DNA of 64,000 nt from an uncultured Acidobacteriota bacterium (lineage in GTDB: Bacteria > Acidobacteriota > Thermoanaerobaculia > Gp7-AA8), in NCBI GenBank assembly GCA_963822445.1, contig CAWGHO010000002.1:2176001-2240000 (forward strand). The letters are read 5' to 3'. The position numbers and the translations under genes were made by a program. Shown here in pieces: positions 1,491 to 47,280 of the stretch (its first letter is position 1; every line of letters begins with the position of its first letter). Below the pieces are notes generated by a model. The model was not told where the DNA came from. It saw only the letters and a list, made by a program, of their open reading frames with translations, and did no database searches.

Positions 1491-1679
1491 GCCGAACTAC
1501 TGCCAGAAGCTGGCAGCGGGCCGTTTGCCGCGCCCGCCGGCCGAGCCGGCTCGGTCGATCGAAGACGCACGGCGTCACGCCGCGTGCATCCGCGTCAAAC
1601 GGCAGTCGGCAGCACGCGGCGTGCCGCATCGCCGCACGCACGTGGGGCCTCGCTGCAGCTTAGGCGATAGACGTTGGGC
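1491..1679 (+). repeat. attC site 2
   Basis: GCCGAAC (complement of the preceding GTTCGGC)...GTTGGGC. Confidence 0.9.
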
Positions 1680-1970
1680 GGACCCGGCACGAAGACGTAG
1701 GCCCGACTTCCATTTTCGCGCTGGCAGTCGCACCGACTGAAGCGGCAGAGCCGCGCGCCAAGGCGTCCGCCACAATCGTTCGTCGTGGTACCCGCCCGGC
1801 CGCCGGCTTGTCGCAAGTGCAGCGCGCGAAACATGGTTCTCGTCGGCAGCCGGCCACAATCGCCTCAAGAGCCAAAATCCACGCCGGCCTGTCGGCCGAG
1901 CACGCGTTCCGCGTCCCTCACCATTGGGCGCGCGCGCTGCTCCCAAGCGCGCAAAGTTTTGCGTGTGGCC
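1674..1970. repeat. ORF-less cassette family A, copy 1
   Basis: ~297-bp body GGCGGAC...GTGTGGCC repeated 8 times in the window. Confidence 0.85.
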
Positions 1971-2160
1971 GCCCAACAACTCACAGCAGCTGTCGCGGCC
2001 CGGCTTCGGCCCGGCGGCCGAGCCGCCTGGGCCGAACAGTACCGGCGCGGCGTCACGCCGGCTGCAGATCGGTTCGTTCGTTAATCGCCGGCAGCCGGCG
2101 TGCCGCGCTGCAGTAGCCACGCGGGCCCTGGCCGCGCAACTGAGTGAGATGACGTTGGGC
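1971..2160 (+). repeat. attC site 3 (family-A subtype)
   Basis: GCCCAACAACTCAC...GTGAGATGACGTTGGGC. Confidence 0.9.
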
Positions 2161-2452
2161 GGACTCGGCACGAATAGGTAGGCCGGACTTCTATTACGCG
2201 TTGGCAGACGCACCGACTGAAGCGGCGGAGCCGCGCGCCAAGGCGTCCGCCACAATCGTTCGTCGTGGCTCCCGCCCGTCCGCCGGCTCGTCGCACGTGC
2301 AGCGCGCGCGAAGCATGATTCTCGTAGGCAGCCGGCCATAATCTCCGCGAGATCCAAGATCCGAGCCGGCCTTGCGGCCGAGCACGCGTTCCGCGTCCGC
2401 CATCATTCGGCGCGCGCGCTGCTCCCAAGCCCGGAAGGTCATGCGTGTGGCC
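2155..2452. repeat. ORF-less cassette family A, copy 2
   Basis: Homologous to copy 1, in tandem. Confidence 0.85.
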
Positions 2453-2642
2453 GCCCAACAACTCACAGCAGCTGTCGCGGCCCGGCTTCGGCCCGGCGCT
2501 GAAGCGCCTAGGCCGAACAGTACCGGCGCGGCGGCACGCCGGGCCGCAAATCGGTTCATTCGTTAATCGCCGGCAGCCGGCGCGCCGCGCTGCCGTAGCC
2601 GCGTGGGCCCTGGCCGCGCAGCTGAGTGAGATGACGTTAGGC
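2453..2642 (+). repeat. attC site 4 (family-A subtype)
   Basis: GCCCAAC...GTTAGGC. Confidence 0.9.
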
Positions 2643-2670
2643 TGATATCCCGAGATTCACGGTCGAGCTA

Positions 2671-3231
2671 TCAACGTTCATCGCCCAGTGATCGCAGCGC
2701 GAGGGGTCGTAGCGCCTGGAGTAAGTCGTCAGCTGAGTAGGCGCGTCCGGCCGTGACGCCTCTGGGGGCCGGAGCCATCGGGATGATTAGGTCATCCGTC
2801 TCGGAGTGAAGCCACAACGCCACCACGTACACAGCCGGAATCTTCAGAAGGCGAAGCTCAAAGTCTCCTCGTTGGACCTCATCCAACGCTTCTGCTGTAG
2901 TCAGCGCCTCTATAGTTGCTTGTACAAAGGGTCCATCGTTGACTTCAGAAAACGCAAGCCCACCATCTCCCTTGTCGCTAAGCTCGGCTGCCGAAACCGC
3001 GGCCTCCTGCGTGACGAGCAGGTATCGCCACGCAACCGGAACGGCAGTCGACAGCAGAACGTCCCGGAGAATTGCTTCGCGCCCGATCGTGTAAACTCGA
3101 TGAGGTTGTGTAACGTATTGAGGAGTCGAATCTGCCGCAGCCGAAAAGCGACCTCGTGAAGTGGTTCCGAAGCCGTGCTGGCTGAGTAGCTCCCGGCCCG
3201 GCGTCGGCGGTGGTGGTAAGTGTATCGGCAT
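2671..3231 (-). CDS. Hypothetical protein, partner of the adjacent cysteine protease
   Basis: 186 aa; AGGAG RBS; 11 bp downstream of the protease; ELRLLKIPAVYVVALWL segment. Confidence 0.75.
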   Translation of the reverse strand: MPIHLPPPPTPGRELLSQHGFGTTSRGRFSAAADSTPQYVTQPHRVYTIGREAILRDVLLSTAVPVAWRYLLVTQEAAVSAAELSDKGDGGLAFSEVNDGPFVQATIEALTTAEALDEVQRGDFELRLLKIPAVYVVALWLHSETDDLIIPMAPAPRGVTAGRAYSADDLLQALRPLALRSLGDER

Positions 3232-3242
3232 GCTGGCTCCTT

Positions 3243-3860
3243 CTACTTTCGCACGGACCGTCGTTTAGTCGAGGCGTCGGGAGGTGCCGGTTGCGTTTCA
3301 TAGGCATGAGTCCACGTTCCGGTGCCTTGATACGCGTTCCGAAAAACGTCCGCGCTGACGATCGAATCGCCATACCAAGGGTCTTTCAATATGAAAGACG
3401 CTTTACCGTAATCGTAGCCCGTGATCACGACAAAGTGGCCCCCGCCTCCGCTCCAACCCACACGTGCACCTATCGGCCGGTTGTCGTCAATCTCCCGCAC
3501 AACTTCCTCAAACGCCTTCGCCTCATGAACAAACCGTTTGAGGTTCCCCGTCAAAGCTAGAACGGAATCCAGATACCACCAGCGGTTGCATTCAGGGCGC
3601 TCCGGATCGGAACAGCAGTCGGTCCGCTGGAGGGCAGCGTTCGCGATGACGCACTGGCTGGTCCACTTGGTAGCCGAATCGTAAAATTGGGCAACGCTTC
3701 GCGCGACAGCTGCCCAGCACCACTGGTCATACTGCTGACGTTCGCCTACGTACCGCACTATTTCGCGCGACCTCTCTGCCTCCGCAGACATCGTAGAGAT
3801 GCGGCGAGGAGTGGGCACCAGCGGTTCGAGGCCGACCTGAAGAACGGAAGGAAGAGGCAT
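3243..3860 (-). CDS. Papain-like (C39-like) cysteine protease
   Basis: QQYDQWCWAA, GHFVVITGY and DPW catalytic motifs. Confidence 0.85.
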   Translation of the reverse strand: MPLPSVLQVGLEPLVPTPRRISTMSAEAERSREIVRYVGERQQYDQWCWAAVARSVAQFYDSATKWTSQCVIANAALQRTDCCSDPERPECNRWWYLDSVLALTGNLKRFVHEAKAFEEVVREIDDNRPIGARVGWSGGGGHFVVITGYDYGKASFILKDPWYGDSIVSADVFRNAYQGTGTWTHAYETQPAPPDASTKRRSVRK

Positions 3861-3902
3861 ACGTAAGTTCCTGCACCATTTTACGAGACTCTGGAGCGGA
3901 CA

Positions 3903-4089
3903 GCCTAACTACTGCCCGCAGCTGTCAGCGGCCCGTTTGCCGCGCCCGGGGCTGAAGCCCCTCGATCCTACCAAGGCGCACGGCGGCACGCCGCTCGCAG
4001 ATCGGTCGACGTCAATCGCGGCGAGCGGCGCGCCGCTCTGCCCGCGCGCGCATGGGGGCTCGCTGCAGCTGAGGCGACAGACGTTAGGC
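3903..4089 (+). repeat. attC site 5
   Basis: GCCTAAC...GTTAGGC. Confidence 0.9.
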
Positions 4090-4371
4090 GCACGAATCAC
4101 ATTTTCCGTATCCGCGCGCTTTCCATGAACCGCGTACCGGGACGGTCAGCGCCTGGCCGAATCGTCGCCCCAGGAGCGTCCGTTCGATGTATGCGAGCAT
4201 TCAGCTTTCCGCGGCGTTACGGTTGCAGCGGTCGCATTTTGAACGGTCACGATATCATCGGTGCATCGACTCGCGACACGTTGTACTACGCTGTGGGAGT
4301 TGCAGGTCGGGCGAGATGCCCCTTCGCGTTGCCGGTGGTTCGCCGGCAGAAGACCGGGGCGTGGAGGTCGG

Positions 4372-4989
4372 ATGGCCGTAGACCCGAAGGTTAAGGCTTT
4401 AGGCGAACGATTGCTCGCCTTCATGGCGGAGTTTCGTGCTGAAACGGATCGGGCGGCAGCAATTGTCGGTGCGGCCAAGCTTGACTACCTTCTTTATCAG
4501 CTACTCAGTAAATTTCTGCTTCCGCCCACATCAAACAACGACGATTTTCTCGAGGGCGATGCACCTCTCTCGACATTCAGCGCGCGCATTCATGCATGCT
4601 TTCGACTCGGTCTGATTGACGCGCAGTTTGCCAGAGCACTGCACATGATTCGACGCTTACGGAACACATTTGCGCATGAGCCATCCAGCTGCTCATTTCA
4701 ATCGGGTCCACATCACGATCGAGTTCGCGAACTTGTCAATCCGTTCGCGAATAACCCAGGATTTCTGGATATGCGCACCGTGTTCGCTCACGACAAGCCC
4801 GGCGCGGCAGGCTACTTCTACACCATTCTTGGCATATTGATCGTTGGACTAGAAGCGAAGATCGACGAAGTCGTAATGTTGAAGCCGGGTGAGCCCCGTC
4901 AGGTGATTCCTTCATCCTACACGGAGCGTTCACTGGATCGCGACGCCGACGGCAAGCTGGTCAATCTCAAGAAATCCGACGGCGCCTAA
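4372..4989 (+). CDS. MltR/MtlR-like HEPN-domain protein
   Basis: ETDRAAAIVGAA, PLSTFSARI and IRRLRNTFAH motifs; GGAGG before ATG 4372. Confidence 0.8.
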   Translation: MAVDPKVKALGERLLAFMAEFRAETDRAAAIVGAAKLDYLLYQLLSKFLLPPTSNNDDFLEGDAPLSTFSARIHACFRLGLIDAQFARALHMIRRLRNTFAHEPSSCSFQSGPHHDRVRELVNPFANNPGFLDMRTVFAHDKPGAAGYFYTILGILIVGLEAKIDEVVMLKPGEPRQVIPSSYTERSLDRDADGKLVNLKKSDGA

Positions 4990-5183
4990 CTACTGCCAGG
5001 AGCTGTCGGCGGGCCGTTTGCCGCGCCCGGCGCTGAAGCGCCTCGTTCAGCGTCGAATGGCCGGCGGCACGCCGGCCGACATGCTCTCGCGCCGCTGATC
5101 GCGGCGCGACTCACTGCAGCCGTCGCGCCGCGCCGCCGCACGCACGTGGGGCCTCGCCGCAGCTCAGGCGATAGACGTTGGGC
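4984..5183 (+). repeat. attC site 6
   Basis: GCCTAAC...GTTGGGC. Confidence 0.9.
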
Positions 5184-5477
5184 GGACTCGGCACGAAGAA
5201 GGTAGGCCCGACTTCCATTTACGCGTTGACAGTCGCACCGACCGAAGCGGCGGAGCCGCACGCCAAGGCGTCGGCCACAATTTTTCGTCGTGGCACCCGC
5301 CCGCCCGCCGGCTTGTCGCACGTGCAGCGCGCGCGAAGCATGATTTTCGTCGCCAGCCGGCCACAACATCCTCGAGACGCATCAGCGAGGCCGGCCTGTC
5401 GGCCGAGCACGCATTCCGCGTCCGGCACCATTTGGCGCGCGCGCTGCTCCCAAGCGCGCAAGGTTATGGGTGTGGCC
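5178..5477. repeat. ORF-less cassette family A, copy 3
   Basis: Homologous to copy 1. Confidence 0.85.
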
Positions 5478-5666
5478 GCCCAACAACTCACAGCAGCTGT
5501 CGCGGCCCGGCTTCGTCCCGGCGCTGAAGCGCCTGGGCCGAACAGTACCGGCGCGGCGGCACGCCGGCCGCAATTCGGTTCATTCGTTAATCGCCGGCGG
5601 CCGGCGCGCCGCGCTGCCGCAGCCACGCGGGCCCCGGCCGCGCAGCTGAGTGAGATGACGTTGGGC
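5478..5666 (+). repeat. attC site 7 (family-A subtype)
   Basis: GCCCAAC...GTTGGGC. Confidence 0.9.
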
Positions 5667-5954
5667 GGACCCGGCACGAAGACGTAGGCCCGACTTCTAT
5701 TTTCGCGTTGGCAATCGCACCGACTGAAGCGGCGGAGCCGCGCGCCAAGGCGTCCGCCCCAATTCTGGTCGTGGCACCCGCCCGTCCGCCGGCTTGTCGC
5801 ACGTGCAGCGCGCGCGAGGCGTGGTTTTGCGTAGGCCGGTGACCACAAACCTCGAGACGCAGCGACGAAGCGGGCCTTCGGCCACGCGCGCTCCGCGTCA
5901 TGCACGATCGGGCGCGCGCGCTGCTCCCAAGCGCGGAAAGTTATGCGTGTGGCC
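5661..5954. repeat. ORF-less cassette family A, copy 4 (variant centre)
   Basis: Homologous ends; central segment shared with copy 7. Confidence 0.85.
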
Positions 5955-6144
5955 GCCCAACAACTCACAGCAGCTGACGCGGCCCGGCTTCGGCCCGGCG
6001 GCCGAGCCGCCTAGGCCGAACAGTACCGGCGCGGCGGCACGCCGGCCGCAAATCGGTTCATTCGTTAATCGCCGGCAGCCGGCGCGCCGCGCTGCCGCAG
6101 TCGCGTGGGCCTTGGCCGCGCAGCTGAGTGAGATGACGTTGGGC
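5955..6144 (+). repeat. attC site 8 (family-A subtype)
   Basis: GCCCAAC...GTTGGGC. Confidence 0.9.
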
Positions 6145-6435
6145 GGACTCGGCACGAAGAGGTAGGCCCGACTTCCATTTACGCGTTGGCAGTCGCACCG
6201 ACCGAAGCGGCGGAGCCGCGCGCCAAGGCGTCCGCCACAATTGTTCGTCGTGGTACCCGCCCATCCGCCGGCTCGTCCCACGTGCAGCGCGCGCGAAACA
6301 CATTCTTTCGTAGGCCGGTCGCAATCGCCGCGATTGCCGCGATCCCCGCCGGCCTGTCGGCCGAGCACGCATTCCGCGTCCGTCACCATTCGGCGCGCGC
6401 GCTGCTCCCAAGTGCGCAAAGTTATGCGTGTGGCC
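6139..6435. repeat. ORF-less cassette family A, copy 5
   Basis: Homologous to copy 1. Confidence 0.85.
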
Positions 6436-6625
6436 GCCCAACAACTCACAGCAGCTGTCGCGGCCCGGCTTCGGCTCGGCGGCCGAGCCGCCTAGGCCGA
6501 ACAGTACCGGCGCGGCGTCACGCCGGCTGCAGTTCGGTTCATTCGTTAATCGCCGGCAGCCGGCGCGCCGCGCTGCCGTAGCCACGCGGGCCCTGGCCGC
6601 GCAGCTGAGTGAGATGACGTTAGGC
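6436..6625 (+). repeat. attC site 9 (family-A subtype)
   Basis: GCCCAAC...GTTAGGC. Confidence 0.9.
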
Positions 6626-6681
6626 TGAACGCTCCAAGAGCGCACACCTCTCTCGACCTCACGATCTATTAAGCTGAGCCA

Positions 6682-7539
6682 ATGGATGAACGAAGCCTGC
6701 GCGACGCACTCTTTCAAAGTACGGTTCGTATCGTAGTGACCAGTCGCCGCGAGGGCTCAACCATTCGACTCGTCGATCCACCCGAGGTGGCCACGGGCTT
6801 TCTGCTGCAACCCCCGACGCGAGTGGTCGCGAAGCCTCAGATATTCGTCGTCACCGCCGCGCATGTTGTTGAAGATGCGGAGGATGCGAGCATTTACTTC
6901 TTTCGGAGGGTACCTGGGCCTGACGGATCTAGACTGTTCGAATTCAGACGGAAGGCTTTCTTCGGAGAACTCTGGCATTACTCGACCGACAGAGAACTAG
7001 ACATCGCCGTTACGCCAGTCGCACCCAGTAGTGAAATCGCCAGCGCCGTTCAAGACGTGCAGGCGCAGCTTACGGCTTTCATGTTGTACGACGGCCGATT
7101 AGACTCGCACGGACATCCATTCAAAACGCACGACTTTGAAGAGGTGTTATTTGCAGGCTACCCCCGAGGATATTGGGATCCTTTGTCCGGCTCACCGATC
7201 GTCAGGCGTGGCGTGACAGCGACGCCGCTTAGCGTGGACTACCATGGCGCCCCAGCATTCCTGGTCGACGGGGCGGTGTACCCCGGCTGCAGCGGCGGAC
7301 CGGTGGTGGTCATTGAGCAAGAAGTCATTGTGCCATTCGGCCTACCTGTCGAATGGATCGAATATCAGACAATCCGGCTTGAGGAGCGGTTCAGGTTTCT
7401 GGGCATGATCACGCACGTTCAGCATGAGCAAGGCAATCCCCACGCGCTCCTTAATCTGGGTCGTGCGATCAAGGCGGACGCAATCTTCAGCACGATCCGC
7501 CACTATACGCAGCTCACAGATAGCCGAGGGTCAGCCTAA
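6682..7539 (+). CDS. Trypsin-like serine protease
   Basis: ATGF, VTAAHV, LDIAV and YPGCSGGPV motifs. Confidence 0.85.
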   Translation: MDERSLRDALFQSTVRIVVTSRREGSTIRLVDPPEVATGFLLQPPTRVVAKPQIFVVTAAHVVEDAEDASIYFFRRVPGPDGSRLFEFRRKAFFGELWHYSTDRELDIAVTPVAPSSEIASAVQDVQAQLTAFMLYDGRLDSHGHPFKTHDFEEVLFAGYPRGYWDPLSGSPIVRRGVTATPLSVDYHGAPAFLVDGAVYPGCSGGPVVVIEQEVIVPFGLPVEWIEYQTIRLEERFRFLGMITHVQHEQGNPHALLNLGRAIKADAIFSTIRHYTQLTDSRGSA

Positions 7540-9998: not shown

Positions 9999-10742
9999 TT
10001 GGTGGCTGTGGAAAACAATACAAGATCTCAGGCACGCAAGCTATCTAAGCAGCTCGACGACGATCGATCTCAGCTATTTGACCAGTTATACCGGACTCAT
10101 TACTCCCGACTCTGTATGTTTCTGACACGCCTAGGGTTAGCCAGCGAGGACGCTAACGAACTTGCTCAGGAAGCGTTCGTCAGGGTCTACGAGCGCTTAG
10201 ACCATTATCGCGGCGAGGCCGAATGGTCGTATCTCGAGGTGACTGCTCGACACGTCCTTTTTAACTGGCTGCGCAGCAAGCAAGCAGCGAAGCGGCAAGC
10301 CAAGTTTGTATCGTTCACCGAGGGCCTTGATGACGCTGTTGCCTCCGACGACACACCGGAGGCAGCGTTACTTGAGCAGGAGGCGGAGAAGGCCGCTTGC
10401 GACGAACGAAGAACTCAGATGGAGCACTTGAAGAGCGCTATCCAAAGGCTGCCCCCGGCGACTGGAAGTTGCCTCCTGCTGGCGTTAGCCGGGTACAACC
10501 ACTCAGATATCGCAAAACAACTGCGAATTACTCCGGCCGCGGTCAAATCTAGGCTACATGACGCACGACAGAAACTCAGGTCGCTAACCAACCCGCAAGG
10601 ACGGGCAGAAGCTCGGGCTGTGTCGACAGCAGCTAGCTGTCAGCGAGCGAGCGCTGAAAGGTACGTCAAGATCGCTGAATTACAACGCAACGGGTCCACG
10701 CGGGCGGAGACCGCTAATGGGAGGCGTCGAAACGCGGCCTAA
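9999..10742 (+). CDS. ECF-type RNA polymerase sigma-70 factor
   Basis: Region 2 (DANELAQEAFVRVY, WSYL..TARH) and region 4 (DIAKQLRITPAAVKSRLHDARQKL); start uncertain. Confidence 0.85.
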   Translation: MVAVENNTRSQARKLSKQLDDDRSQLFDQLYRTHYSRLCMFLTRLGLASEDANELAQEAFVRVYERLDHYRGEAEWSYLEVTARHVLFNWLRSKQAAKRQAKFVSFTEGLDDAVASDDTPEAALLEQEAEKAACDERRTQMEHLKSAIQRLPPATGSCLLLALAGYNHSDIAKQLRITPAAVKSRLHDARQKLRSLTNPQGRAEARAVSTAASCQRASAERYVKIAELQRNGSTRAETANGRRRNAA

Positions 10743-10934
10743 CTACTGCCAGGAGCTGTCGCGGCCCGGCTTCGGTCCGCCGGCCGAGCCGGCTGCTTTT
10801 TCGCCAGCGTGACGGCGTCACGGCGTTGCAGTTCGCCACTCGCTGCATGGGCAGTTCATTGGCGGCAACTGCCGCGCCGCTCCGGCTTCGGCACGTGGGC
10901 CCTGGCCGCGCAGCTCAGGCGATAGACGTTGGGC
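10737..10934 (+). repeat. attC site 12
   Basis: GCCTAAC...GTTGGGC. Confidence 0.9.
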
Positions 10935-11226
10935 GGACTCGGCACGAAGAGTAGGCCGGACTTCCATTGACGCGTTGGCAGTCGCACCGACTGAAGCGGC
11001 AGAGCCGCGCGCCAAGGCGTCCGCCACAATTGTTCGTCGTGGTTCCCGCCCATCCGCCGGCTTGTTGCACGTGCAGCGCACGCGAAACATGATTTTCGTC
11101 GGCAGCCGGCCACAATCTCCGCGAGAGCCACCCTCCACGCCGGCCTGGCGGCCGAGCACGCATTCCGCGTCCGCCACGATTCGGCGCGTGCGCTGCTCCC
11201 AAGCGCGGAAAGCTATGCGTGTGGCC
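10929..11226. repeat. ORF-less cassette family A, copy 6
   Basis: Homologous to copy 1. Confidence 0.85.
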
Positions 11227-11415
11227 GCCCAACAACTCACAGCAGCTGACGCGGCCCGGCTTCGTCCCGGCGCTGAAGCGCCTGGGCCGAACAGTACCGG
11301 CGCGGCGGCACGCCGGCCGCAGATCGGTTCATTCGTTAATCGCCGGCGGCCGGCGCGCCGCGCTGCCGCAGCCACGCGGGCCCTGGCCGCGCAGCTGAGT
11401 GAGATGACGTTAGCC
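11227..11415 (+). repeat. attC site 13 (family-A subtype)
   Basis: GCCCAAC...GTTAGCC. Confidence 0.9.
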
Positions 11416-12988: not shown

Positions 12989-13097
12989 CGGGAGATCGCT
13001 GCCCCCCGACCCGCGAGAGCGACACGTCGTGATCAGGCCCGATGTGTCGGCGTGATCTAGATGCTCCAGGTTGTAAACCACCAGTTTCGGTATGAAC

Positions 13098-13412
13098 TTA
13101 GACATTCGCGGGGCGCAAAACCACCAGTTCGGTCACTCCGGAAGTGACCTTTGCCAATTCGGAAGTGACCTTTGCCACTTCGGAAGTGACCTTTGCCACT
13201 TCGGAAGTGACCCTTGCCACTTCGGAAGTGACTTGGGCCACTTCGGAAGTGACCTTTGCCAATTCGGAAGTGACTTGGGCCACTTCGGAAGTGACCTTTG
13301 CCACTTCGGAAGTGACCTTGGCCACTTCGGAAGTGACCACGGCCACTTCGCTAGTGACCTTGGCCACTTCGGAAGTGACCTTGCATTCAACTCTGAGACC
13401 GACGACGGACAT
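13098..13412 (-). CDS. Heptad-repeat (VTSEVAK) coiled-coil-like protein
   Basis: Repeat variants include synonymous changes in this frame (GCA/GCC, TCC to AGC). Confidence 0.5.
   Translation of the reverse strand: MSVVGLRVECKVTSEVAKVTSEVAVVTSEVAKVTSEVAKVTSEVAQVTSELAKVTSEVAQVTSEVARVTSEVAKVTSEVAKVTSELAKVTSGVTELVVLRPANV
13134..13385. repeat. Tandem repeat, 12 x 21 bp
   Basis: Unit CACTTCGGAAGTGACCTTTGC with internal palindrome CACTTC-G-GAAGTG. Confidence 0.95.
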
Positions 13413-13430
13413 GCCGCGCATTGAATGGCT

Positions 13431-13627
13431 GGCTAACTGCTGCCAGCAGCTGACAGCGGCCCGTTTGCCGCTCCCGGGGCTGAAGCCCCTTTTTCCTCCC
13501 GAGACGAACGGCGACATGCCGCTTGCAGATCGCTCCCGCCGACTGGTCGTTAGTCGCGGCAACCGGCCTGCCGCGCGAACCGCACGCGCGCGGGGGCTCG
13601 CTGCAGCTGAGGCGACGTACGTTAGGC
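13431..13627 (+). repeat. attC site 15
   Basis: GGCTAAC...GTTAGGC. Confidence 0.9.
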
Positions 13628-13899
13628 GCACGCAAACACCAGCGCCGTGGCCACACGCGAGAGACGAGCCGCGAAGGTCGCAAGCGGCGTTCGCTGGTCG
13701 CTCGTCGAGAATGAGTGATGCCGCCTTACCCGAGGTCGTTCCGTACGGCGGACGAGTAATCGCTAACGCGCAAATCTAGCCGGGCAGAGGCACATAATTC
13801 CAGATCTGGTTGTTAGCTGCGGCCAGTTTTACTGGTTTCGGCTATGTCGAGGTAGGGAATTGCCCGGCCCAGCCCCTCCTATCTTGGAGGAAGCCAAGA

Positions 13900-14406: not shown

Positions 14407-14460
14407 GCTCGTGGTGTCAATCCGATCGTCTCGGACCTGCCTCTTGCGCTACTGGCCGGC

Positions 14461-14657
14461 GCCTAACTTTGGTGTGAAGCTGGCACGGCCCGGCTTCGGC
14501 CCGGCAGCCGAGCTGCCTGCCCTGTCGCCAGCGTGACGGCGTCACGGCCGTTGCAGTTCGCCAGTCGTTGCGTGCGACTTCTCGGCGGCAACGGCCGCGC
14601 CGCTGCGGCTTCGGCACGTGGGCCTTGGCCGTGCAGCTTACACCAAGGACGTTAGGC
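14461..14657 (+). repeat. attC site 16
   Basis: GCCTAACTTTGGTG...CACCAAGGACGTTAGGC. Confidence 0.9.
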
Positions 14658-14787
14658 GGACGCATCTTAGCCTGCGTTGCCCGCACGCTTTCCATGAGGC
14701 TCCGCGTACTTGCACGGTCGTCGCGCTCGACCGCCGGTAGGGGGCTAGTTTCGATCTGGGGCCTACTTTCCGCGCATCGCTATCCGT

Positions 14788-15739: not shown

Positions 15740-15936
15740 GCCTAACTACTGCCAGCAGCGGACGGCGGGCCGTTCGTTGGCCCGGCGGCCGAGCCGCCTA
15801 CGTCGCTCCAACTTGCACGGCGTCACGCCGCTTGCAGATCGCGCCCGCCGACAATCTCGTTAGTTGCGGCAAGCGGCGCGCCGCTTTCCGCTCACGGCTG
15901 TGGGCCTCGCCGCCGCTGAGGCGACAGACGTTAGGC
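15740..15936 (+). repeat. attC site 17
   Basis: GCCTAAC...GTTAGGC. Confidence 0.9.
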
Positions 15937-16126
15937 GCACGAAAACCAGCGACACGTTTGGTAGCATGGACGCGTCGCATTTGGCGCGGGCGAAGGAACG
16001 AAGGCGAAACGCGACGGCCGCAATCGTGACCGGAGCCGACCATGCTGCCCAGTTTATCGCCTGCGTCGCCACTCGACTATGACGAACCGGTCCGCCTGCT
16101 TGCAGCCGTCTGACGGAGGTGAACGA

Positions 16127-16510
16127 TCACAGCTTGGCCTTCTTGGGAAAAATTGTCACGTCGGGTAGGCCACTGAATCCGGAGTCGGTGGTTACGAGCG
16201 TAGCGTCGCTTTCGCGGGCGAATGCCAGCATCATCGAGTCAGCCATCGCCAAGCCGTGCTCAAGGCTCAGATCTGCCGCCGTCAGCGCAACTTCCTCGGT
16301 CAAATTGACGACGACGGTCTTCTTCATGGTGGCCACGGCGTCGAGTGCCTCGTCCTCTGACCGTTCGCGCTTGATCCACTTGTAAACTTCGTAGATTGCG
16401 ACGGTCGGAGTGATGACGTCCGCTGGGCGGCGCAACCTCGTCGCGAACTCCTCGGCGTGCGGACCATCCGCGAAAAACTCGATCCAACCCGAAGAGTCAA
16501 TGACTATCAA
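16127..16510 (-). CDS. vapC: PIN-domain toxin VapC
   Basis: VIDSSGWIE, YEV, ADS and TTDSGF PIN acidic residues. Confidence 0.9.
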   Translation of the reverse strand: MIVIDSSGWIEFFADGPHAEEFATRLRRPADVITPTVAIYEVYKWIKRERSEDEALDAVATMKKTVVVNLTEEVALTAADLSLEHGLAMADSMMLAFARESDATLVTTDSGFSGLPDVTIFPKKAKL

Positions 16511-16716
16511 AACCGATCCTTCTTTTCGCGGAAGCCGGTTGTGCGAATACCGCGAACGAACCCGCGCATTGACGAGATCGGTCTGTCGGGAACAAGCGTG
16601 ACGCTGCCACCCTTAGCGATTACTTGAAACTCTTGCCCGACGCGAATCTTGGCGCGCTCCCGTACATCCTTCGGTATAACGACCTGATACTTTGACGATA
16701 CTCTCGTTCGGGTCAT
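16507..16716 (-). CDS. vapB: AbrB/MazE/SpoVT-family antitoxin
   Basis: VSSKYQVVIPKDVRE motif; 4-bp overlap with vapC. Confidence 0.9.
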   Translation of the reverse strand: MTRTRVSSKYQVVIPKDVRERAKIRVGQEFQVIAKGGSVTLVPDRPISSMRGFVRGIRTTGFREKKDRF

Positions 16717-16808
16717 TGCGGAACTCCTTCGCTGGATCGATCATCAGTATCGTAAGACGCGGCGACAGCACTGTCAACGCCCGATTCACGTGTCTCATTT
16801 CGGCCGCC

Positions 16809-17007
16809 GGCTAACTACTGCCAGGAGCTGTCGGCGGGCCGTTTGCCGCGCCCGGCGCTGAAGCGCCTCGGTAAGCGTCGATTGGCCGGCGGCACGCCGG
16901 CCGACATGCTCTCGCGCCGCTAGCCGCGGCGCGAACACTGCAGCCGTCGCGCCGCGCAACCGCTCGCACGCGGGGCCTCGCCGCAGCTCAGGCGATAGAC
17001 GTTAGCC
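16809..17007 (+). repeat. attC site 18
   Basis: GGCTAAC...GTTAGCC. Confidence 0.9.
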
Positions 17008-22635: not shown

Positions 22636-23018
22636 AAGAGGAGGACGTTACACCGCTGGTCGTCGCGCGTGCTGGCGAGATGCTGCGGCAAGAGCGCGAG
22701 ACCTTCGATCAGAGGAAGCAGCATGAAGACCGGTGGTTCCGTTTACGGCTTACGATGGGATATTCGTCTATCGCGTTGCTTGCCGGTATCATGTGCCTTT
22801 GTATGTATATTATTTTCAACGCGGCGAAGTTTCCGGCCACGGTAATTACATCGGCCGGCGCGGCGCTATTCGTAGACGTTCTAGGCTTGTTGCTCGGAGT
22901 GTGGAAAATTGCCCTTAATCCGAACTTCATGGCCACGTTGACACCGGTCACACGAGTGAGCGTTCCAGCTCCCGAAAACGAGTCAGAGAGCAAGCCTCCT
23001 CCAGAGATCACGGCCTAA
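22632..23018 (+). CDS. Two-TM membrane protein coupled to the TIR gene
   Basis: ATGA overlap; two hydrophobic segments; stop in R''. Confidence 0.8.
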   Translation: MKEEDVTPLVVARAGEMLRQERETFDQRKQHEDRWFRLRLTMGYSSIALLAGIMCLCMYIIFNAAKFPATVITSAGAALFVDVLGLLLGVWKIALNPNFMATLTPVTRVSVPAPENESESKPPPEITA

Positions 23019-23202
23019 CTCTTGTGTGAAGCCGGCGCCGGGCCGTTTGCCGGGCCCGGCGGCCGAGCCGCCTACCGCGTCCCGAGACGCATGGCGTCAC
23101 GCCGCCCGCAACCGCGTCAAGCGACAATCGGCGGCAGGCGGCGTGCCGCTCTGCCCGCACGCGCGCGGGGCCTCGGCGCGGCTTACACAAAGAACGTTAG
23201 GC
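23013..23202 (+). repeat. attC site 23
   Basis: GCCTAACTCTTGTG...CACAAAGAACGTTAGGC. Confidence 0.9.
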
Positions 23203-26129: not shown

Positions 26130-26334
26130 GCCGGCGACCGCTGCTCCCGCCCGTGTCTTTTGGGGCGGCGCTTACATGCGAATCCCATTTTCGGCCGCTG
26201 TCGCTAGGCGGACGAAGGAACATCCGGTCACAGCGCTTCTACCAGATATCGAACATGCAGCTCAGCGCGGTGTAGACTTACCGACGTGCGTACCGTCAAG
26301 ATCGAGACATTACGCGCAAGGCGGAGAACATAGC

Positions 26335-27282: not shown

Positions 27283-27353
27283 TGGTTGTCGTGTCGCTGC
27301 GTCACAGCCAGAGACCAAGGGTGCAGGGTTACGCAACCGCCGGGACTCGCCGC

Positions 27354-35839: not shown

Positions 35840-36873
35840 TGTGATGTGTCAGGACGTTGTTCCTTGAAGCGGGTTGTCCATCCGGGCGACTTTCGTCAAT
35901 CTGAAAGCTCTCAAACGAACAGGTTGACAGGAAGGAACCCAGATGGACGTGCACAAGAATGCGCGAAGCTGCCCGTTGAGTCGAGCACTGCTGGTCAAAC
36001 GAGTCTGCGAACAAGGATGGTCGGTGCGCGAGGCGTCGGAGGCCGCCGGTATGAGTGACCGGCGAGGGCGGGAGTGGATCCGTCGTGGTCTGAGGGTCGA
36101 GCCGCTTAACGATCGGAGCTCCAGACCGCACAGGGGCCGGGCCACGAGCGACATAAAACGACAGCGTGTTCTGAGTCTTCGCCGCGAATGGCGGACTGTG
36201 CGACAGATCGCGCAGGCAGTGGGCGTGAGTGCGTCGACAGCAGCGCGGATCTGCCGGTCAGCAGGGCTGGCTCGGTTGCGTCAGCTTGAGCCGGCAACAG
36301 TGCCAATTCGGTACGAGAAGGAGCGTCCGGGGGAACTGGTGCACATCGACATCAAGCGCCTGGGACGGTTCAATCGAGTGGGACACCGCATCACCAGGCG
36401 TCGATCGTTTGGCTCAAAGAAGCAGGGCTTCGAGTTCGTGTACGTCGCGACGGATGACTTCACCCGACTCTCCTACGTCGACGTCCTGGCAGATGAGCGT
36501 AGCGAGACTGCCAGCTCGTTTTTGACTCGGGCGGTGGCGTGGTTCGCTCAGCGGAATGTCATCGTCGAGCGGGTGATGACCGACAACGGATCGGCCTTCA
36601 TCTCACGCGACTTCCGGGATACCTGCAGCCGCCTGAACCTCACTCACGTCCGCATCCGGCCGTACACACCACGGACGAACGGTAAAGCGGAGCGGTTCAT
36701 CCAGACGCTGCTGCGCGAATGGGCCTATCGGTTCTCGTACCACAGCTCCGAGGAACGGCGCCGTTGGCTCGCACCGTACCTTCACTTCTACAACTACCAC
36801 CGAGCGCATACCGCGCTCTCTTACAATCCACCCATCAGTCGCCTGGATCGGAACAACGTCCTGAGACGCAACA
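35840..36873 (+). mobile_element. IS481-family element copy 2, inserted in attC R'
   Basis: 1034 bp; GTTAGG on both sides. Confidence 0.95.
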
Positions 36874-36878
36874 GTTAG
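35943..36878 (+). CDS. IS481-family DDE transposase
   Basis: Same protein as 27354-28289; TAG stop supplied by the target GTTAG. Confidence 0.95.
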   Translation: MDVHKNARSCPLSRALLVKRVCEQGWSVREASEAAGMSDRRGREWIRRGLRVEPLNDRSSRPHRGRATSDIKRQRVLSLRREWRTVRQIAQAVGVSASTAARICRSAGLARLRQLEPATVPIRYEKERPGELVHIDIKRLGRFNRVGHRITRRRSFGSKKQGFEFVYVATDDFTRLSYVDVLADERSETASSFLTRAVAWFAQRNVIVERVMTDNGSAFISRDFRDTCSRLNLTHVRIRPYTPRTNGKAERFIQTLLREWAYRFSYHSSEERRRWLAPYLHFYNYHRAHTALSYNPPISRLDRNNVLRRNS

Positions 36879-38791: not shown

Positions 38792-38990
38792 GCCTAACTA
38801 CTGCCAGGAGCTGTCGGCGGGCTTGCTCCGTGGCCCGTCGGCCGAGCCGACTCGGCCGACTCAAACCTGCGCGGCGTCACGTCCGTTGCAGTTCGCTCCT
38901 GCCGTCAAAGGCGTTGGTCGCGGCAACGGCCGCGCCGCTCTGCTGGTTGCGCCGTTGAACCCGCCGCAGCTCAGGCGATAGACGTTGGGC
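38792..38990 (+). repeat. attC site 32
   Basis: GCCTAAC...GTTGGGC. Confidence 0.9.
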
Positions 38991-39275
38991 GGACCCGGCG
39001 CGAAACGTAGGCCGGACTTCTATTTACGCGTTGGCAGTCGCGCCGACAGAAGCGGCGTAGCCGCGCGCCAAGGCGTCCGCCGCCATTTTCGTCGTGGTAC
39101 CCGCCCGCCCACCGGCTGCTCGCACCAGCAGCGCGCGCGGGGCACGATCTGCGTAGGCCAGTGACCACAAAACTCGAGACGCACTGACGTAGCGGGCCTT
39201 CGGCCACGCGCGCTTCGCGTCGTGCACCATTTGCCGCGCGCGCTGCTCCCAGCGCGCAAAGCTGTGCGTGTGGCC
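38985..39275. repeat. ORF-less cassette family A, copy 7 (variant centre)
   Basis: Homologous to copy 4. Confidence 0.85.
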
Positions 39276-39464
39276 GCCCAACAACTCACAGCAGCTGTCG
39301 CGGCCCGGCTTCGGCCCGGCGCTGAAGCGCCTGGGCCGAACAGTACCGTCGCGGCGGCACGCCGGCCGCAATTCGGTTCATTCGTTAATCGCCGGCAGCC
39401 GGCGCGCCGCGCTGCCGTAGCCACGCAGGCCCTGGCCGCGCAGCTGAGTGAGATGACGTTAGCC
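39276..39464 (+). repeat. attC site 33 (family-A subtype)
   Basis: GCCCAAC...GTTAGCC. Confidence 0.9.
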
Positions 39465-43283: not shown

Positions 43284-43291
43284 GGTCGGCG

Positions 43292-44150: not shown

Positions 44151-44429
44151 TGCCCACCTTATCGTTAGATGCAGTTGACCACTTTGTTGCTGTAATCCAA
44201 GGACGAGCGTTTGATAGCAAGGTGACCGTCGCCGAGCGTAGATCCGCAATGCTCCCCTTCGGGTGCAGTAAGCCGAAGCGCGTCGCTCTACGTACAACGT
44301 CGTGCGTCGAGAGGTACTGGGCCCGCCAGCTTCCAGAAATCAACTCCGAGTGGTCTCACAAGTAGGAGTGTCGCCTCCGTCGAATTCCCTACCCACAAGC
44401 AAAGCTGGAGATCTTGATCGCCGCGCCGG

Positions 44430-45365
44430 CTAACTGTTGCGTCTCAGGACGTTGTTCCGATCCAGGCGACTGATGGGTGGATTGTAAGAGAGCGCGGTAT
44501 GCGCTCGGTGGTAGTTGTAGAAGTGAAGGTACGGTGCGAGCCAACGGCGCCGTTCCTCGGAGCTGTGGTACGAGAACCGATAGGCCCATTCGCGCAGCAG
44601 CGTCTGGATGAACCGCTCCGCTTTACCGTTCGTCCGTGGTGTGTACGGCCGGATGCGGACGTGAGTGAGGTTCAGGCGGCTGCAGGTATCCCGGAAGTCG
44701 CGTGAGATGAAGGCCGATCCGTTGTCGGTCATCACCCGCTCGACGATGACATTCCGCTGAGCGAACCACGCCACCGCCCGAGTCAAAAACGAGCTGGCAG
44801 TCTCGCTACGCTCATCTGCCAGGACGTCGACGTAGGAGAGTCGGGTGAAGTCATCCGTCGCGACGTACACGAACTCGAAGCCCTGCTTCTTTGAGCCAAA
44901 CGATCGACGCCTGGTGATGCGGTGTCCCACTCGATTGAACCGTCCCAGGCGCTTGATGTCGATGTGCACCAGTTCCCCCGGACGCTCCTTCTCGTACCGA
45001 ATTGGCACTGTTGCCGGCTCAAGCTGACGCAACCGAGCCAGCCCTGCTGACCGGCAGATCCGCGCTGCTGTCGACGCACTCACGCCCACTGCCTGCGCGA
45101 TCTGTCGCACAGTCCGCCATTCGCGGCGAAGACTCAGAACACGCTGTCGTTTTATGTCGCTCGTGGCCCGGCCCCTGTGCGGTCTGGAGCTCCGATCGTT
45201 AAGCGGCTCGACCCTCAGACCACGACGGATCCACTCCCGCCCTCGCCGGTCACTCATACCGGCGGCCTCCGACGCCTCGCGCACCGACCATCCTTGTTCG
45301 CAGACTCGCTTGACCAGCAGTGCTCGACTCAACGGGCAGCTTCGCGCATTCTTGTGCACGTCCAT
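44430..45365 (-). CDS. IS481-family DDE transposase
   Basis: Same protein as the other two copies. Confidence 0.95.
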   Translation of the reverse strand: MDVHKNARSCPLSRALLVKRVCEQGWSVREASEAAGMSDRRGREWIRRGLRVEPLNDRSSRPHRGRATSDIKRQRVLSLRREWRTVRQIAQAVGVSASTAARICRSAGLARLRQLEPATVPIRYEKERPGELVHIDIKRLGRFNRVGHRITRRRSFGSKKQGFEFVYVATDDFTRLSYVDVLADERSETASSFLTRAVAWFAQRNVIVERVMTDNGSAFISRDFRDTCSRLNLTHVRIRPYTPRTNGKAERFIQTLLREWAYRFSYHSSEERRRWLAPYLHFYNYHRAHTALSYNPPISRLDRNNVLRRNS

Positions 45366-45468
45366 CTGGGTTCCTTCCTGTCAACCTGTTCGTTTGAGAG
45401 CTTTCAGATTGACGAAAGTCGCCCGGATGGACAACCCGCTTCAAGGAACAACGTCCTGACACATCACA
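44435..45468 (-). mobile_element. IS481-family element copy 3, inserted in attC R''
   Basis: 1034 bp; flanks GCTAAC and CCTAAC (not identical). Confidence 0.95.
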
Positions 45469-45664
45469 CCTAACTACTGCCAGGAGCTGTCGCGGCCCGG
45501 CTTCGGTCCGCCGGCCGAGCCGGCTGCTTTTTCGCCAGCGTGACGGCGTCACGGCGGTTGCAGTTCGGCAGGCGTTGCATGCAACTTCTCGCCGGCAACC
45601 GCCGCGCCGCTTCGGCTTCGGCACGTGGGCCCTGGCCGCGCAGCTCAGGCGATAGACGTTGGGC
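45469..45664 (+). repeat. attC site 37 (IS481 at R'')
   Basis: CCTAAC...GTTGGGC. Confidence 0.9.
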
Positions 45665-45972
45665 GGACGAGGGCGACATCGACGTGCGTGCTACGACCAG
45701 CCGGGTCCTCGACATCGAAGGGGGCGAAGCTGAATCACAGTGGAAAATCGACGTGCTACCCCGTGGAACGCTCTCAAACGCCTCTGCCAAATCTACTCGC
45801 GGTAGTTCCCGGCACTTGTTGCGTTTGCGTCGCGGCCTATCGCTACCGTCGCCGTGCGCTTCGATTAGGCGAAGCCGAGATGTCTTTTCGGCGTTTGCGC
45901 GCGTCCAGTGGCTAGGAGATGATTGCGCGCGGTGGATCGGTCGCTCGACTAGTCGCGAGGTAAGATTGAGTT

Positions 45973-46590
45973 ATGAAGCAATACATTCTGAAATGGGGTG
46001 GCCGTTTCGCGTCATCCATCGTCGTAATGCTCGCCACGATTCCCTCAGTGTTTGGCACCTTTCAATCGCAGACAGCTGGTCGTGCGTGGATGTTCGCAAT
46101 TGCGGCTGTCGCTTTGATCGGATTGCTGGTCGATGTTGCATTTCAGGAGCGCGCGGAGGCGCAGTTGAACAGAATCGAGCGTTCATCCGACGAAACTCTC
46201 GAGAGCAACCGCAGGCTGATCCGCATGCTAACGGTGAAGGACCCGCAGACACTCCGAGGGCGCGCGGCGTTACTGTCATCACGTATTCTCATCTGGATTT
46301 CGGAACTTGAAGCCACTGTGTGGTCAGCGAGACCGGTCGCGAAGCCAAACACGGTGGATGCCATCATCGCAGAAGGTGTTACCCGCTGGCACCTGGTTCA
46401 GGAGACGAACGAGATCTTTTCGCGTCTGTTCGCGAAGGACGTTCTAAAGCTCCGCGAGGATCTCCAGCAAGCCGGAGTATCGAATGCGTTCATTGACTCG
46501 TTCTCGCCTGAAAGCAACACGCCCGATGCGATCAGGCTGCTTGCGGTGCACCTCGGCCGCGCTGCCGATCGGCTCCCAGACGAAGTTTAA
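45973..46590 (+). CDS. Hypothetical two-TM membrane protein
   Basis: 205 aa; ends 10 bp before R''. Confidence 0.75.
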   Translation: MKQYILKWGGRFASSIVVMLATIPSVFGTFQSQTAGRAWMFAIAAVALIGLLVDVAFQERAEAQLNRIERSSDETLESNRRLIRMLTVKDPQTLRGRAALLSSRILIWISELEATVWSARPVAKPNTVDAIIAEGVTRWHLVQETNEIFSRLFAKDVLKLREDLQQAGVSNAFIDSFSPESNTPDAIRLLAVHLGRAADRLPDEV

Positions 46591-46600
46591 GAGAGGCGCC

Positions 46601-46796
46601 GCCCAACTACTGCCAGAAGCTGGCACGGCCCGGCTTCGGTCCGCCGGCCGAGCCGGCTGCATCATCGCCAGCGTGTCGGCGTCACGGCGGTTGCAGATCG
46701 CCAGTCGTTGCGGGCAACTCCTCGCCGGCAACCGCCGTGCCGCTCGGCTTCGGCACGTGGGCCCTGGCCGTGCAGCTTAGGCGATAGACGTTGGGC
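46601..46796 (+). repeat. attC site 38
   Basis: GCCCAAC...GTTGGGC. Confidence 0.9.
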
Positions 46797-47089
46797 GGAC
46801 CCGGCACGAAGAGGTAGGCCCGACTTCCATTTACGCGTTGGCAATCGCACCGACTGAAGCGGCGGAGCCGCGCGCCAAGGCGTCCGCCACAATTGCTCGT
46901 CGTGGTACCCGCCCGTCCGCCGGCTTGTCGCACCTGCAGCACGCGCGAATCATGATTCTCGTAGGCAGCCGGCCACAATCTGCCCAAGAGCCGCTATCCA
47001 CGCCGGCCTGACGGCCGAGCACGCATTCCGCGTCGGCCATCATTCGGCGCGCGCGCTGCTTCCAAGCGCGGAAAGTCGTGCGTGCGGCC
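46791..47089. repeat. ORF-less cassette family A, copy 8
   Basis: Homologous to copy 1. Confidence 0.85.
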
Positions 47090-47280
47090 GCCCAACAACT
47101 CACAGCAGCTGTCGCGGCCCGGCTTCGTCCCGGCGCTGAAGCGCCTGGGCCGAACAGTATCGGCGCGGCGTCACGCCGGCTGCAGTTCGGTTCGTTCGTT
47201 AATCGCCGGCAGCCGGCGTGCCGCGCCCTGCCGTAGCCGCGTGGGCCCTGGCCGCGCAGCTGAGTGAGATGACGTTAGCC
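47090..47280 (+). repeat. attC site 39 (family-A subtype)
   Basis: GCCCAAC...GTTAGCC. Confidence 0.9.

Follow-up and report, generated by a model that had tools for sequence, protein, structure and literature searches.

An amplified family of gene-less cassettes with its own attC subtype in a chromosomal integron of a soil Acidobacteriota bacterium

The window, which is the whole 64,000-nt stretch of DNA analysed here, is part of a ~106-kb chromosomal integron with intI and 85 cassettes in an Acidobacteriota host from soil, and it carries eight copies of a family of non-coding integron cassettes that probably spread through the integrase IntI. In each family cassette of ~480 bp, a body of ~300 bp is followed by its own attC of ~190 bp, and no encoded product accounts for the abundance of the family. 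The original prediction had described an ORF-less cassette with three options for its nature: a structured non-coding RNA, a selfish cassette using IntI, or a spacer or regulatory unit. The common base of these options, an ORF-less integron cassette, is supported by codon phases, GC content, Pfam and homologue searches and the comparison of ORFs among copies. The selfish cassette is the option that fits best, given a cassette-exact pair of identical copies and the position of the family as the sole large paralogous group of the array.

Copies, boundaries and attC sites

The IntI protein scores 456.8 bits against TIGR02249 (cut-off 265), and the family cassettes adjoin its gene through the attC array, as integron cassettes do. 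The features are as follows, with unprefixed coordinates referring to the window.

C2:2118092-2119054: intI, protein of 321 aa; the array begins 1.6 kb downstream
C2:2120645-2226592: attC array, 86 sites and 85 cassettes
1673..2153, + strand: c1, 481 bp, centre type A, with a 2-base deletion in the CG-run stem arm
1971..2160, + strand: attC of c1, R'' GCCCAAC, L'' AACTCAC ... L' GTGAGAT, R' GTTGGGC
2154..2635, + strand: c2, 482 bp, centre type A, in tandem with c1
2453..2642, + strand: attC of c2, family subtype
5177..5659, + strand: c3, 483 bp, centre type A
5478..5666, + strand: attC of c3, family subtype
5660..6137, + strand: c4, 478 bp, centre type B
5955..6144, + strand: attC of c4, family subtype
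6138..6618, + strand: c5, 481 bp, centre type C, 100% identical to the copy at C2:2155124-2155604
6436..6625, + strand: attC of c5, family subtype
10928..11408, + strand: c6, 481 bp, centre type A, with the sole compensatory G-C to A-T change in the 12-bp stem
11227..11415, + strand: attC of c6, family subtype
38984..39457, + strand: c7, 474 bp, centre type B
39276..39464, + strand: attC of c7, family subtype
46790..47273, + strand: c8, 484 bp, centre type A
47090..47280, + strand: attC of c8, family subtype

The opening sequence GTTGGGCGGAC occurs exactly at 1673, 2154, 5177, 5660, 6138, 10928, 38984 and 46790, and with at most one mismatch it has 21 matches against 1.8 expected. Because the first seven bases of the cassette are complementary to its own R'' in 81 of the 85 array cassettes, GTTGGGCGGAC is simply the R' core; one non-family cassette, at 45658, has the same opening 11 bases as the family. 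The eight window units, of 474-484 bp each, end ...GTGAGATGAC|GTT, and all 12 copies in the genome start GTTGGGC and stop just before the next GTTRRRY, with both ends lying at the G|TT crossover like those of integron cassettes. The exact positions and the alignment of the eight units (mean column identity 91%) confirm the eight diverged ~295-bp bodies with a common start, although each start had been placed one base too high. The predicted family size of eight was too small, since the genome holds 12 copies, four of them upstream of the window. Tandem sets of two (c1-c2) and three (c3-c4-c5) are present as described, as are frame-breaking indels, of 1, 2 and 3 bases, and tandem placement is not enriched in the array (3 adjacent pairs versus 1.55 expected at random, P = 0.18).

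Four paralogue groups were found among the 85 cassette bodies, and of these the gene-less family alone combines a large size (12) with divergence (76-100%). It is also the smallest cassette class in the array, at 474-484 bp, the next smallest cassette having 690 bp. The GC content of its bodies is 66-69.5%, against a mean of 57% for other cassette bodies; this high GC was counted against the selfish-cassette reading.

The family attC, GCCCAAC-AACTCAC...GTGAGAT-GAC-GTTGGGC, is 189-191 bp long and has the R''/L''/L'/R' organisation of an attC site, and the family sites are mutually 89-98% alike. The boxes AACAACTCACAGCAGCTG and GTGAGATGACGTT occur 12 times each in the genome, every time inside family cassettes, and the family L-boxes are found in 12/12 family cassettes and 0/73 other array cassettes; the claim that the subtype is exclusive to the family thus stands. 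The bottom strand of the c1 attC is predicted to fold as DNA into a long bulged hairpin with the R and L boxes paired (dG -77.5 kcal/mol, z -6.9). Mean bottom-strand fold energy is -78.7 kcal/mol for the family and -70.7 kcal/mol (sd 5.7) for the 69 other sites scored, and the family values fall within the range of the other sites, which counts against the selfish-cassette reading. In favour of that reading, attC and body fold independently in predicted circular single strands, with 10 of 11 bottom strands retaining their R-box pairing.

Coding content

ORFs of 50-260 aa overlap the family copies on both strands, and a definition of gene-less by ORF length (none >150 bp in Boucher et al., none >210 bp in Blanco et al.) does not describe the family. 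This threshold is uninformative here because chance ORFs arise at 68% GC and the threshold was set on AT-rich Vibrio DNA; we filed the family as non-coding by evolutionary criteria, not by ORF length. By the rule of Boucher et al. the copies have neither a synonymous-site pattern nor a frame conserved among paralogues: substitutions are flat over the codon phases (e.g. 7/8/4 and 15/15/9) with no 3-base rhythm, and no ORF is constant in start and frame among the copies. GC1, GC2 and GC3 of family ORFs all equal ~68%, compared with ~62/44/60 in neighbouring cassette genes. Pfam returned 0 families for eight family ORFs, a search with a 121-aa minus-strand ORF among proteins of 66-212 aa in 5.8 billion clusters gave 0 homologues at E <= 0.01, and six-frame tblastn of the family against the whole genome found nothing beyond the family.

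Two coding explanations can be weighed against these results. The cargo might be a small protein of ~70 aa on the minus strand, M-x-x-D-A-E ... ALARGSAASVGATANA, whose ORF is intact from its ATG in c2, c3, c7 and c8 and whose stop and last ~18 codons are common to all copies. However, c1, c4 and c5 have a broken frame, c6 has no ATG at that position, and the same conserved DNA is read in different frames in different copies, c7 and the type B copies using another frame. Silent and amino-acid-changing substitutions are equally frequent with no phase bias, the product is rich in Arg, Ala and Gly like an off-frame reading of GC-rich DNA, and the absence of homologues at E <= 0.01 in the 5.8 billion clusters adds to this, which makes a small-protein cargo hardly credible. 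That the family is the decayed remnant of a once-coding cassette, a pseudogene duplicated later, is very unlikely. Frame-breaking indels are present, and degenerated genes account for some of the Vibrio gene-less cassettes described by Blanco et al. (2024, PMC11014356), but the family has no Pfam or protein match in any frame, no tblastn match outside itself, an un-protein-like GC2 of ~68% in every frame and no residual 3-base periodicity.

Conserved arms, variable centre and candidate roles of the body

The body is composed of two slowly changing arms around a variable centre. Variable columns make up 36% of the left arm, 31% of the right arm and 67% of the centre (Fisher P = 7e-8), the centre changing ~5x faster than the arms.

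2299..2422, no strand: variable domain in the centre of c2, with the 12-bp inverted repeat GCAGCGCGCGCG / CGCGCGCGCTGC as its closing stem
1819-1940, 5324-5447, 5805-5924, 6284-6405: the same domain in c1, c3, c4 and c5
11073-11196, 39128-39246, 46936-47059: the same domain in c6, c7 and c8
2222..2294, no strand: conserved imperfect hairpin in the left arm of c2 (alignment A3 columns 74-147)

Three centre types, A, B and C, can be distinguished. The central modules of c4 and c7 are 82% identical to each other and 48-64% identical to type A/C copies, which bears out the predicted swapped module common to these two copies, and the type B centre is also found in two copies upstream of the window. 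The stems had been reported as kept, and they are indeed conserved, but through near-absence of variation and not through compensation: of the 27 pairs named, 21 never vary and one is compensatory (G-C to A-T, c6), while in 11/11 distinct copies a G-G mismatch is found within the stem ACGCGTTGGC/GCCAAGGCGT. The conserved arms are unexpected for a passenger that needs only attC, and point to constraint on the body or to gene conversion.

One source of such constraint would be a structured non-coding RNA or single-stranded DNA in which the arms form a scaffold and the ~100-nt variable domain is the part for specificity or target recognition, a reading that we consider improbable. In its favour, the 12-bp stem is invariant in 10/12 pairs around ~100 nt with 67% variable columns and shows a single double change, G-C to A-U, in c6, the loop is the sole variable part of the hairpin GCGGC-NNA-GCCGC, and the ~120-nt domain closed by the 12-bp repeat folds better than shuffled sequence in 4/4 copies tested on both strands (z -1.4 to -4.2). 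Better-than-shuffle folding is limited to this closed central domain, since whole-body z-scores are only -0.86 and -1.53; the left-arm hairpin gives z of -0.3 to -2.4 across the copies and strands tested. In the RNAalifold structure of 70 pairs, 45 never vary and four have changes on both sides, a number reached by 17/500 shuffles in a control that overstates support for related sequences. The RNAalifold covariation term, a check that the original prediction had proposed together with an Rfam search, is ~0 on both strands (-0.16 and +0.22 kcal/mol), and Rfam 15 gave 0 matches at gathering scores in the whole window; matches at E <= 1 are at chance level, the best (19.5-19.8 bits versus 50) lying in attC and not in the body. 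Furthermore, minimum-energy shapes of the centre differ among copies, matches of the variable centres to other parts of the genome do not exceed chance length (15-21 nt, E >= 0.002), and no terminator-like end is conserved among the five copies scanned. Taken with the single compensatory pair, these results do not support the structured-RNA option as predicted. The slow arms and the consistent better-than-shuffle folding of the centre nevertheless leave room for a broader cis-acting reading, in which the body is a nucleic-acid module that helps its own IntI-dependent excision or capture, or a modular RNA with an exchangeable ~100-nt domain, and this we regard as doubtful. As a helper structure it would make the cassette a dedicated non-autonomous parasite of the integron, and as a modular RNA its domain types A, B and C would give different specificities.

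Alternatively, the body could control transcription, as a sense or antisense promoter, an insulator or a processing site through which the expression of neighbouring cassettes deep in the array is set, and be kept for that, as in the gene-less cassettes described from Vibrio superintegrons; this possibility we hold to be unlikely. It would offer the needed explanation for the conserved arms. The copies lie 27 to 82 cassettes from intI, beyond the reach of an array promoter, and of the nine cassettes located directly behind a family copy or tandem set, seven carry a long + strand ORF. Sense-strand promoter activity was reported for the majority of 29 gene-less cassettes from Vibrio, where in-silico prediction failed (PMC11014356), and according to that report consensus promoter scans are not decisive for gene-less cassettes. 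Against this reading, sigma-70-type matches numbered 0 in positions 1500-6800 (five copies), and a relaxed scan gave only 7-8 of 12 matches, in 6/12 copies on the + strand and 6/12 on the minus strand, none of them family-wide. Tandem doublets and triplets are also unnecessary for a promoter. The Vibrio promoter cassettes are described as AT-rich with activity partly ascribed to that AT-richness (PMC11014356), whereas the body here has 68% GC; because this GC-rich body has no conserved sigma-70-type site, the explanation from Vibrio is harder to apply.

Propagation, distribution and known systems

The self-propagating cassette that we prefer finds its clearest evidence in c5 and the copy at C2:2155124, which lie 27 kb apart and share 484 identical bases, starting 3 bases ahead of one GTT and running to the following GTT, in unrelated flanks. 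This cassette-exact identity indicates copying that was probably integrase-mediated and suggests that the integron has been recently active, while whole-copy gene conversion could in principle also produce such a pair. Against the preferred reading, only this one recent copy event is visible, the other copies being 72-96% alike. No copy is found among the 26 cassettes nearest intI, where new insertions are expected, which also counts against it, as does the lack of enrichment of tandem placement. The body was not found in 60 relatives, in 400 genomes of the phylum or in 60 genomes of the family, the search of related genomes that had been proposed, nor in exact-motif scans of public collections.

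In integrons, recombination involves a single DNA strand, and replication resolves the product. IntI would excise the ~480-bp unit and re-insert it at a G|TT crossover, and because of this single-strand recombination an excised copy could re-insert while the original stays, allowing the family to grow. The 12 copies would descend from one ancestral body-plus-attC unit, and such descent would explain why the attC subtype is common to the family alone. Abundance may be driven mainly by efficient propagation of the cassette itself, as the smallest cassette with a strongly folding, well-conserved attC. We infer from the sequences that IntI is the agent of this copy increase and that the family is selfish or neutral rather than beneficial to the host.

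Amplified non-coding cassette families are already known from Vibrio in the accounts of Boucher et al. (2006, PMC1382264) and Blanco et al. (PMC11014356), and the present family is a new example, not a new kind; as it stands it is an incremental example and not a new mechanism. The non-coding cassettes of Boucher et al. (PMC1382264) likewise have their own attC, no coding signal, many diverged paralogues per array, a narrow taxonomic range and no database homologues; V. vulnificus CMCP6 has up to 45 copies, DAT722 paralogues are 84-88% identical, and a selfish element or a promoter or RNA were offered as explanations. Unlike these, the family here belongs to an Acidobacteriota host, is GC-rich (68%), contains long chance ORFs, has its own attC subtype within the array, and has conserved arms on either side of a hypervariable centre that a 12-bp inverted repeat closes; moreover, most of the Vibrio cassettes have close homologues in other vibrios, compared with none here in the genomes searched. 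The cassettes of Blanco et al. (PMC11014356) are similar in size (491-666 bp versus ~480 bp), are likewise gene-less and are situated far inside a large sedentary array, and in the Treponema integrons cited there intI is also on the cassette strand. They differ in being AT-rich with measured promoter activity, whereas this family is GC-rich, without conserved -35/-10 elements, and known from sequence. Ghaly et al. (2021, PMC8352920) modelled taxon-specific, homogeneous attC families of chromosomal integrons, including those of Acidobacteria, and the present array is such a family with R''/L''/L'/R' organisation; the available part of that paper mentions neither non-coding cassettes nor cassette-tied attC subtypes.

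The family accounts for 12/85 cassettes in an array that ranks among the larger chromosomal integrons observed outside Vibrio, and extends amplified non-coding cassettes from AT-rich Gammaproteobacteria to GC-rich soil Acidobacteriota. MITEs are short, non-coding elements with diverged copies that multiply via a recombinase encoded elsewhere. By analogy, the family may be compared with them in being short and non-coding with diverged copies and a presumably borrowed recombinase. It differs from MITEs in that it would move by tyrosine-recombinase site-specific recombination at attC and not by transposition, and it has no target-site duplication or transposon terminal inverted repeats, the complementarity of its ends being that of attC R'/R''. 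The family and majority attC sites form a natural site pair for a mobility comparison, which bears on whether integrons carry their own parasites.

Neighbours differ for every copy outside the two tandem sets. In the cassette behind c2 the long ORFs are minus-strand ones, and the cassette that follows the C2:2155124 copy has ORFs of 71-76 aa only.

Array setting and anatomy of the cassette family

The window overlaps a chromosomal integron array in a genome of 6.0 Mb and 64% GC (G000; C2 denotes the contig). The integrase gene lies outside the window:

G000:C2:2118092-2119054 (locus L063:193-1155), intI, 456.8 bits on TIGR02249 (cut-off 265)

Its orientation is the 'inverted' arrangement, which Blanco et al. 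mention for Treponema (PMC11014356). The distance from intI to the first attC is ~1.6 kb, with a minus-strand ORF in between. A profile of attC 3' halves identified 86 full + strand attC sites, which span C2:2120645-2226592 (ending at window ~50592) and define 85 cassettes. The typical cassette is 1.0-2.0 kb long with an attC of 187-201 bp, most have a long + strand ORF, and the cargo of the flanking cassettes is of the ordinary integron type, including proteins of unknown function and the following:

Window 3243-3860, -, papain-like C70/C39-type peptidase
Window 9999-10742, +, ECF-type sigma factor, shortly before family copy c6
Window 26035-27282, +, TIR-domain protein

The exact 11-mer GTTGGGCGGAC is found in family copies at window positions 1673, 2154, 5177, 5660, 6138, 10928, 38984 and 46790 (c1 to c8); the eight copies of the original prediction are present, each starting one base lower than it had placed them. 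A ninth exact GTTGGGCGGAC, at 45658, is the start of a cassette unrelated to the family. Because the first 7 bases complement the cassette's own R'' box in 81 of the 85 cassettes, this shared start is simply the R' core that belongs to the attC type. The eight window units measure 474-484 bp each, end in GTGAGATGAC followed by GTT, and align with a mean column identity of 91%, and the predicted indels amount to 1-3 bases in this alignment. The next cassette above the family in size, the smallest outside it, is 690 bp. A whole-genome search gave 12 full family copies, four of them upstream of the window:

C2:2155124, family copy
C2:2162291, family copy
C2:2166771, family copy
C2:2172756, family copy

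The first 26 array cassettes include no family copy. The predicted tandem sets are c1-c2 and c3-c4-c5; across the array three adjacent family pairs were observed against 1.55 expected (P = 0.18), and a tandem preference was dropped because this excess over chance is non-significant.

Each unit consists of the R' core and left arm (alignment columns 1-163), a centre, a short right arm and the ~190-bp attC, and the ~100-nt centre is closed by a 12-bp inverted repeat, GCAGCGCGCGCG / CGCGCGCGCTGC. Variable columns make up 36% of the left arm, 67% of the centre, 31% of the right arm and 19% of the attC. The centres fall into two clades, with 45-65% identity between them: c1, c2, c3, c5, c6 and c8 with two upstream copies, and c4 and c7 with the two others. 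Left-arm identity is 81-96%, with a grouping that does not match the centre clades; the central module said to be swapped in the fourth and seventh copies is real and is common to four copies in the genome. A genome-wide REP-type element was ruled out for the 12-bp inverted-repeat domain, since the arm pair occurs in the genome in family copies only. Derivation of the body from attC or other cassette DNA was likewise rejected, because blastn (word size 7, whole genome) yielded no E-value below 0.003 beyond the 12 copies.

The attC boxes AACAACTCACAGCAGCTG and GTGAGATGACGTT occur 12 times each in the genome, every time in a family copy, which bears out the dedicated attC subtype; the other 73 array cassettes have TACTGCC/GGCGATAGAC or one of a few minor types. 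Models of Acidobacteria attC sites are included in Ghaly et al. (2021, PMC8352920). The bottom strand of the family attC folds as a bulged hairpin (z -6.9), with a mean fold energy of -78.7 kcal/mol versus -70.7 (sd 5.7) for 69 other scored sites, a value within their range. The complementary pair between body and attC is 17-18 nt long (82-83%). In predicted circular single strands the two are separate folding domains, and masking of the attC by its own body was rejected on the 0-2 body-attC pairs in 10 of 11 bottom-strand folds. One minor subtype, with L boxes TTTGGTGTG / CACACCAAGGAC (variant CTTGTGTG), is present on a handful of coding cassettes, so the array has at least three L-box classes:

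Window ~459-672, minor-subtype attC
Window ~14443-14670, minor-subtype attC
Window ~23013-23220, minor-subtype attC
C2:2128463, 2173234 and 2175623, minor-subtype attC

Coding potential, folding and promoters

There is no evidence of a protein from the family copies. Substitutions are even over the three codon phases in each ungapped block, and no ORF of at least 12 codons keeps both start and frame across copies. A minus-strand ORF of ~70 codons is intact from ATG in c2, c3, c7 and c8, is broken in c1, c4 and c5, and has no ATG at its start position in c6; in copies with the type B centre, among them c4 and c7, the ORF runs through the same conserved stretch in another frame. Family-copy ORFs have GC1 = GC2 = GC3 at ~68%, compared with ~62/44/60 in real cassette genes nearby. 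Protein coding was rejected because Pfam (eight family ORFs), a large protein collection (the 121-aa minus-strand ORF, in a word-indexed search of near lengths only) and six-frame tblastn of the family against the whole genome, beyond the family itself, all came up empty. The family has ORFs longer than the 150 or 210 bp that the rule used for Vibrio allows, but at this GC content the rule is uninformative. A small protein is most improbable, and a decayed gene is hardly more plausible.

The three predicted stems exist as inverted repeats, in which 21 of 27 pairs are invariant and one shows a double change; every one of the 11 distinct copies has a G-G mismatch in the first stem. The RNAalifold covariation term is -0.16 kcal/mol on one strand and +0.22 kcal/mol on the other; the program's 70-pair + strand structure has 45 invariant pairs and 4 with changes on both sides, a level reached by 17 of 500 shuffles, and the tool itself warns that shuffle tests of this kind are too generous where the sequences are related. 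Whole-body fold energy is ordinary for its composition (z -0.86 and -1.53), and the left-arm hairpin reaches z -0.3 to -2.4. The one part to fold consistently better than shuffled sequence is the domain that the 12-bp repeat closes (z -1.4 to -4.2; both strands of each of the four copies tested), and the minimum-energy shapes of the centre vary from copy to copy. Rfam gave no match at gathering thresholds and nothing relevant at E <= 1. The variable centres were rejected as antisense guides, since their matches elsewhere in the genome are only 15-21 nt long, at chance level. A structured RNA is not supported for the body, the 12-bp stem being a candidate that merits more sequences, and we regard a structured RNA or DNA as improbable.

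A promoter or regulatory cassette is the less doubtful of the functional alternatives, although still unlikely. Blanco et al. (2024) reported promoter activity in most of 29 gene-less cassettes (PMC11014356). The family copies have no conserved sigma-70-type promoter, and a scan of five of them revealed no conserved terminator-like site; an ECF-sigma-type -35 (GGAAC), picked by eye on the minus strand, was dropped as unconserved between copies.

Copying within the array and distribution

The family is probably a non-coding cassette whose abundance would reflect its own IntI-dependent propagation. Over 484 bases c5 matches its counterpart at C2:2155124, 27 kb away, without a difference; the identity begins 3 bases ahead of the first GTT and ends at the next one, and the flanks are unrelated. 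Judged from sequence, such exact-unit identity is what IntI-mediated copy insertion gives; whole-copy gene conversion is less likely, because the edges share only ~11-14 bases of flank. The 85 cassette bodies form only four paralogue groups, the first being this family (12 copies, 76-100% identity) and the second four cassettes joined by an IS481-family element. The third and fourth are coding pairs, which likewise point to recent cassette copying:

Window 15930-17000 and G000:C2:2120747-2121797, 100% identity, 71 kb apart
Window 47274-48313 and G000:C2:2149070-2150110, 98.6% identity, 74 kb apart

Exactly this class is already known from Vibrio, where non-coding cassettes often occur as paralogues, numbering as many as 45 per array, with nucleotide-level conservation and a narrow taxon range (Boucher et al. 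2006, PMC1382264), and the same two explanations, propagation and function, were put forward there. With its conserved arms and high GC, the body may yet have a function. What sets this family apart is an attC subtype of its own, a body rich in GC and the mosaic of arms and centre.

By BLAST, the family body was not found in 60 relatives, 34 of them species of the same genus (12 candidates scored per genome), or in 400 phylum genomes (only 2 candidates scored per genome), with attC-level matches in two genomes. Nor did it turn up in 60 genomes of the taxonomic family under a covariance model (R1) with stricter filters, and exact-motif scans of genome and metagenome contigs did not find it. The single metagenome match (locus L047) lies in AT-rich coding DNA and is due to chance, and the attC-like match in L049 is truncated and belongs to another subtype. 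The negative result holds for the sequences searched, by scans that depended on exact words or scored a handful of candidates in each genome. Two related genomes have only 7 and 15 attC-like matches, and hence no large array for comparison.

AttC-like sites also lie outside the main array in integrase-less clusters (G000:C2:480950-493884 (-), C3:1333674-1357395, C1:1230521-1230698 and others), which contain no family copy. The IS481-linked group comprises one upstream cassette and three oversized window cassettes, whose 311-aa transposase ORFs (Pfam LZ_Tnp_IS481, rve) are:

Window 27354-28289, -, IS481-family transposase
Window 35943-36878, +, IS481-family transposase
Window 44430-45365, -, IS481-family transposase

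Positions 27348-27647 and 44424-44723 are 100% identical. The array ends at ~50592, and the last ~13 kb of the window has long ORFs, an ordinary chromosomal look and higher GC (61-64%). Within one cassette, at window 13092-13424, a 21-bp unit is repeated in tandem at least 11 times (63-100% identical to the reference unit), and ORFs at 13098-13631 (-) and 13144-13779 (+) overlap this array.
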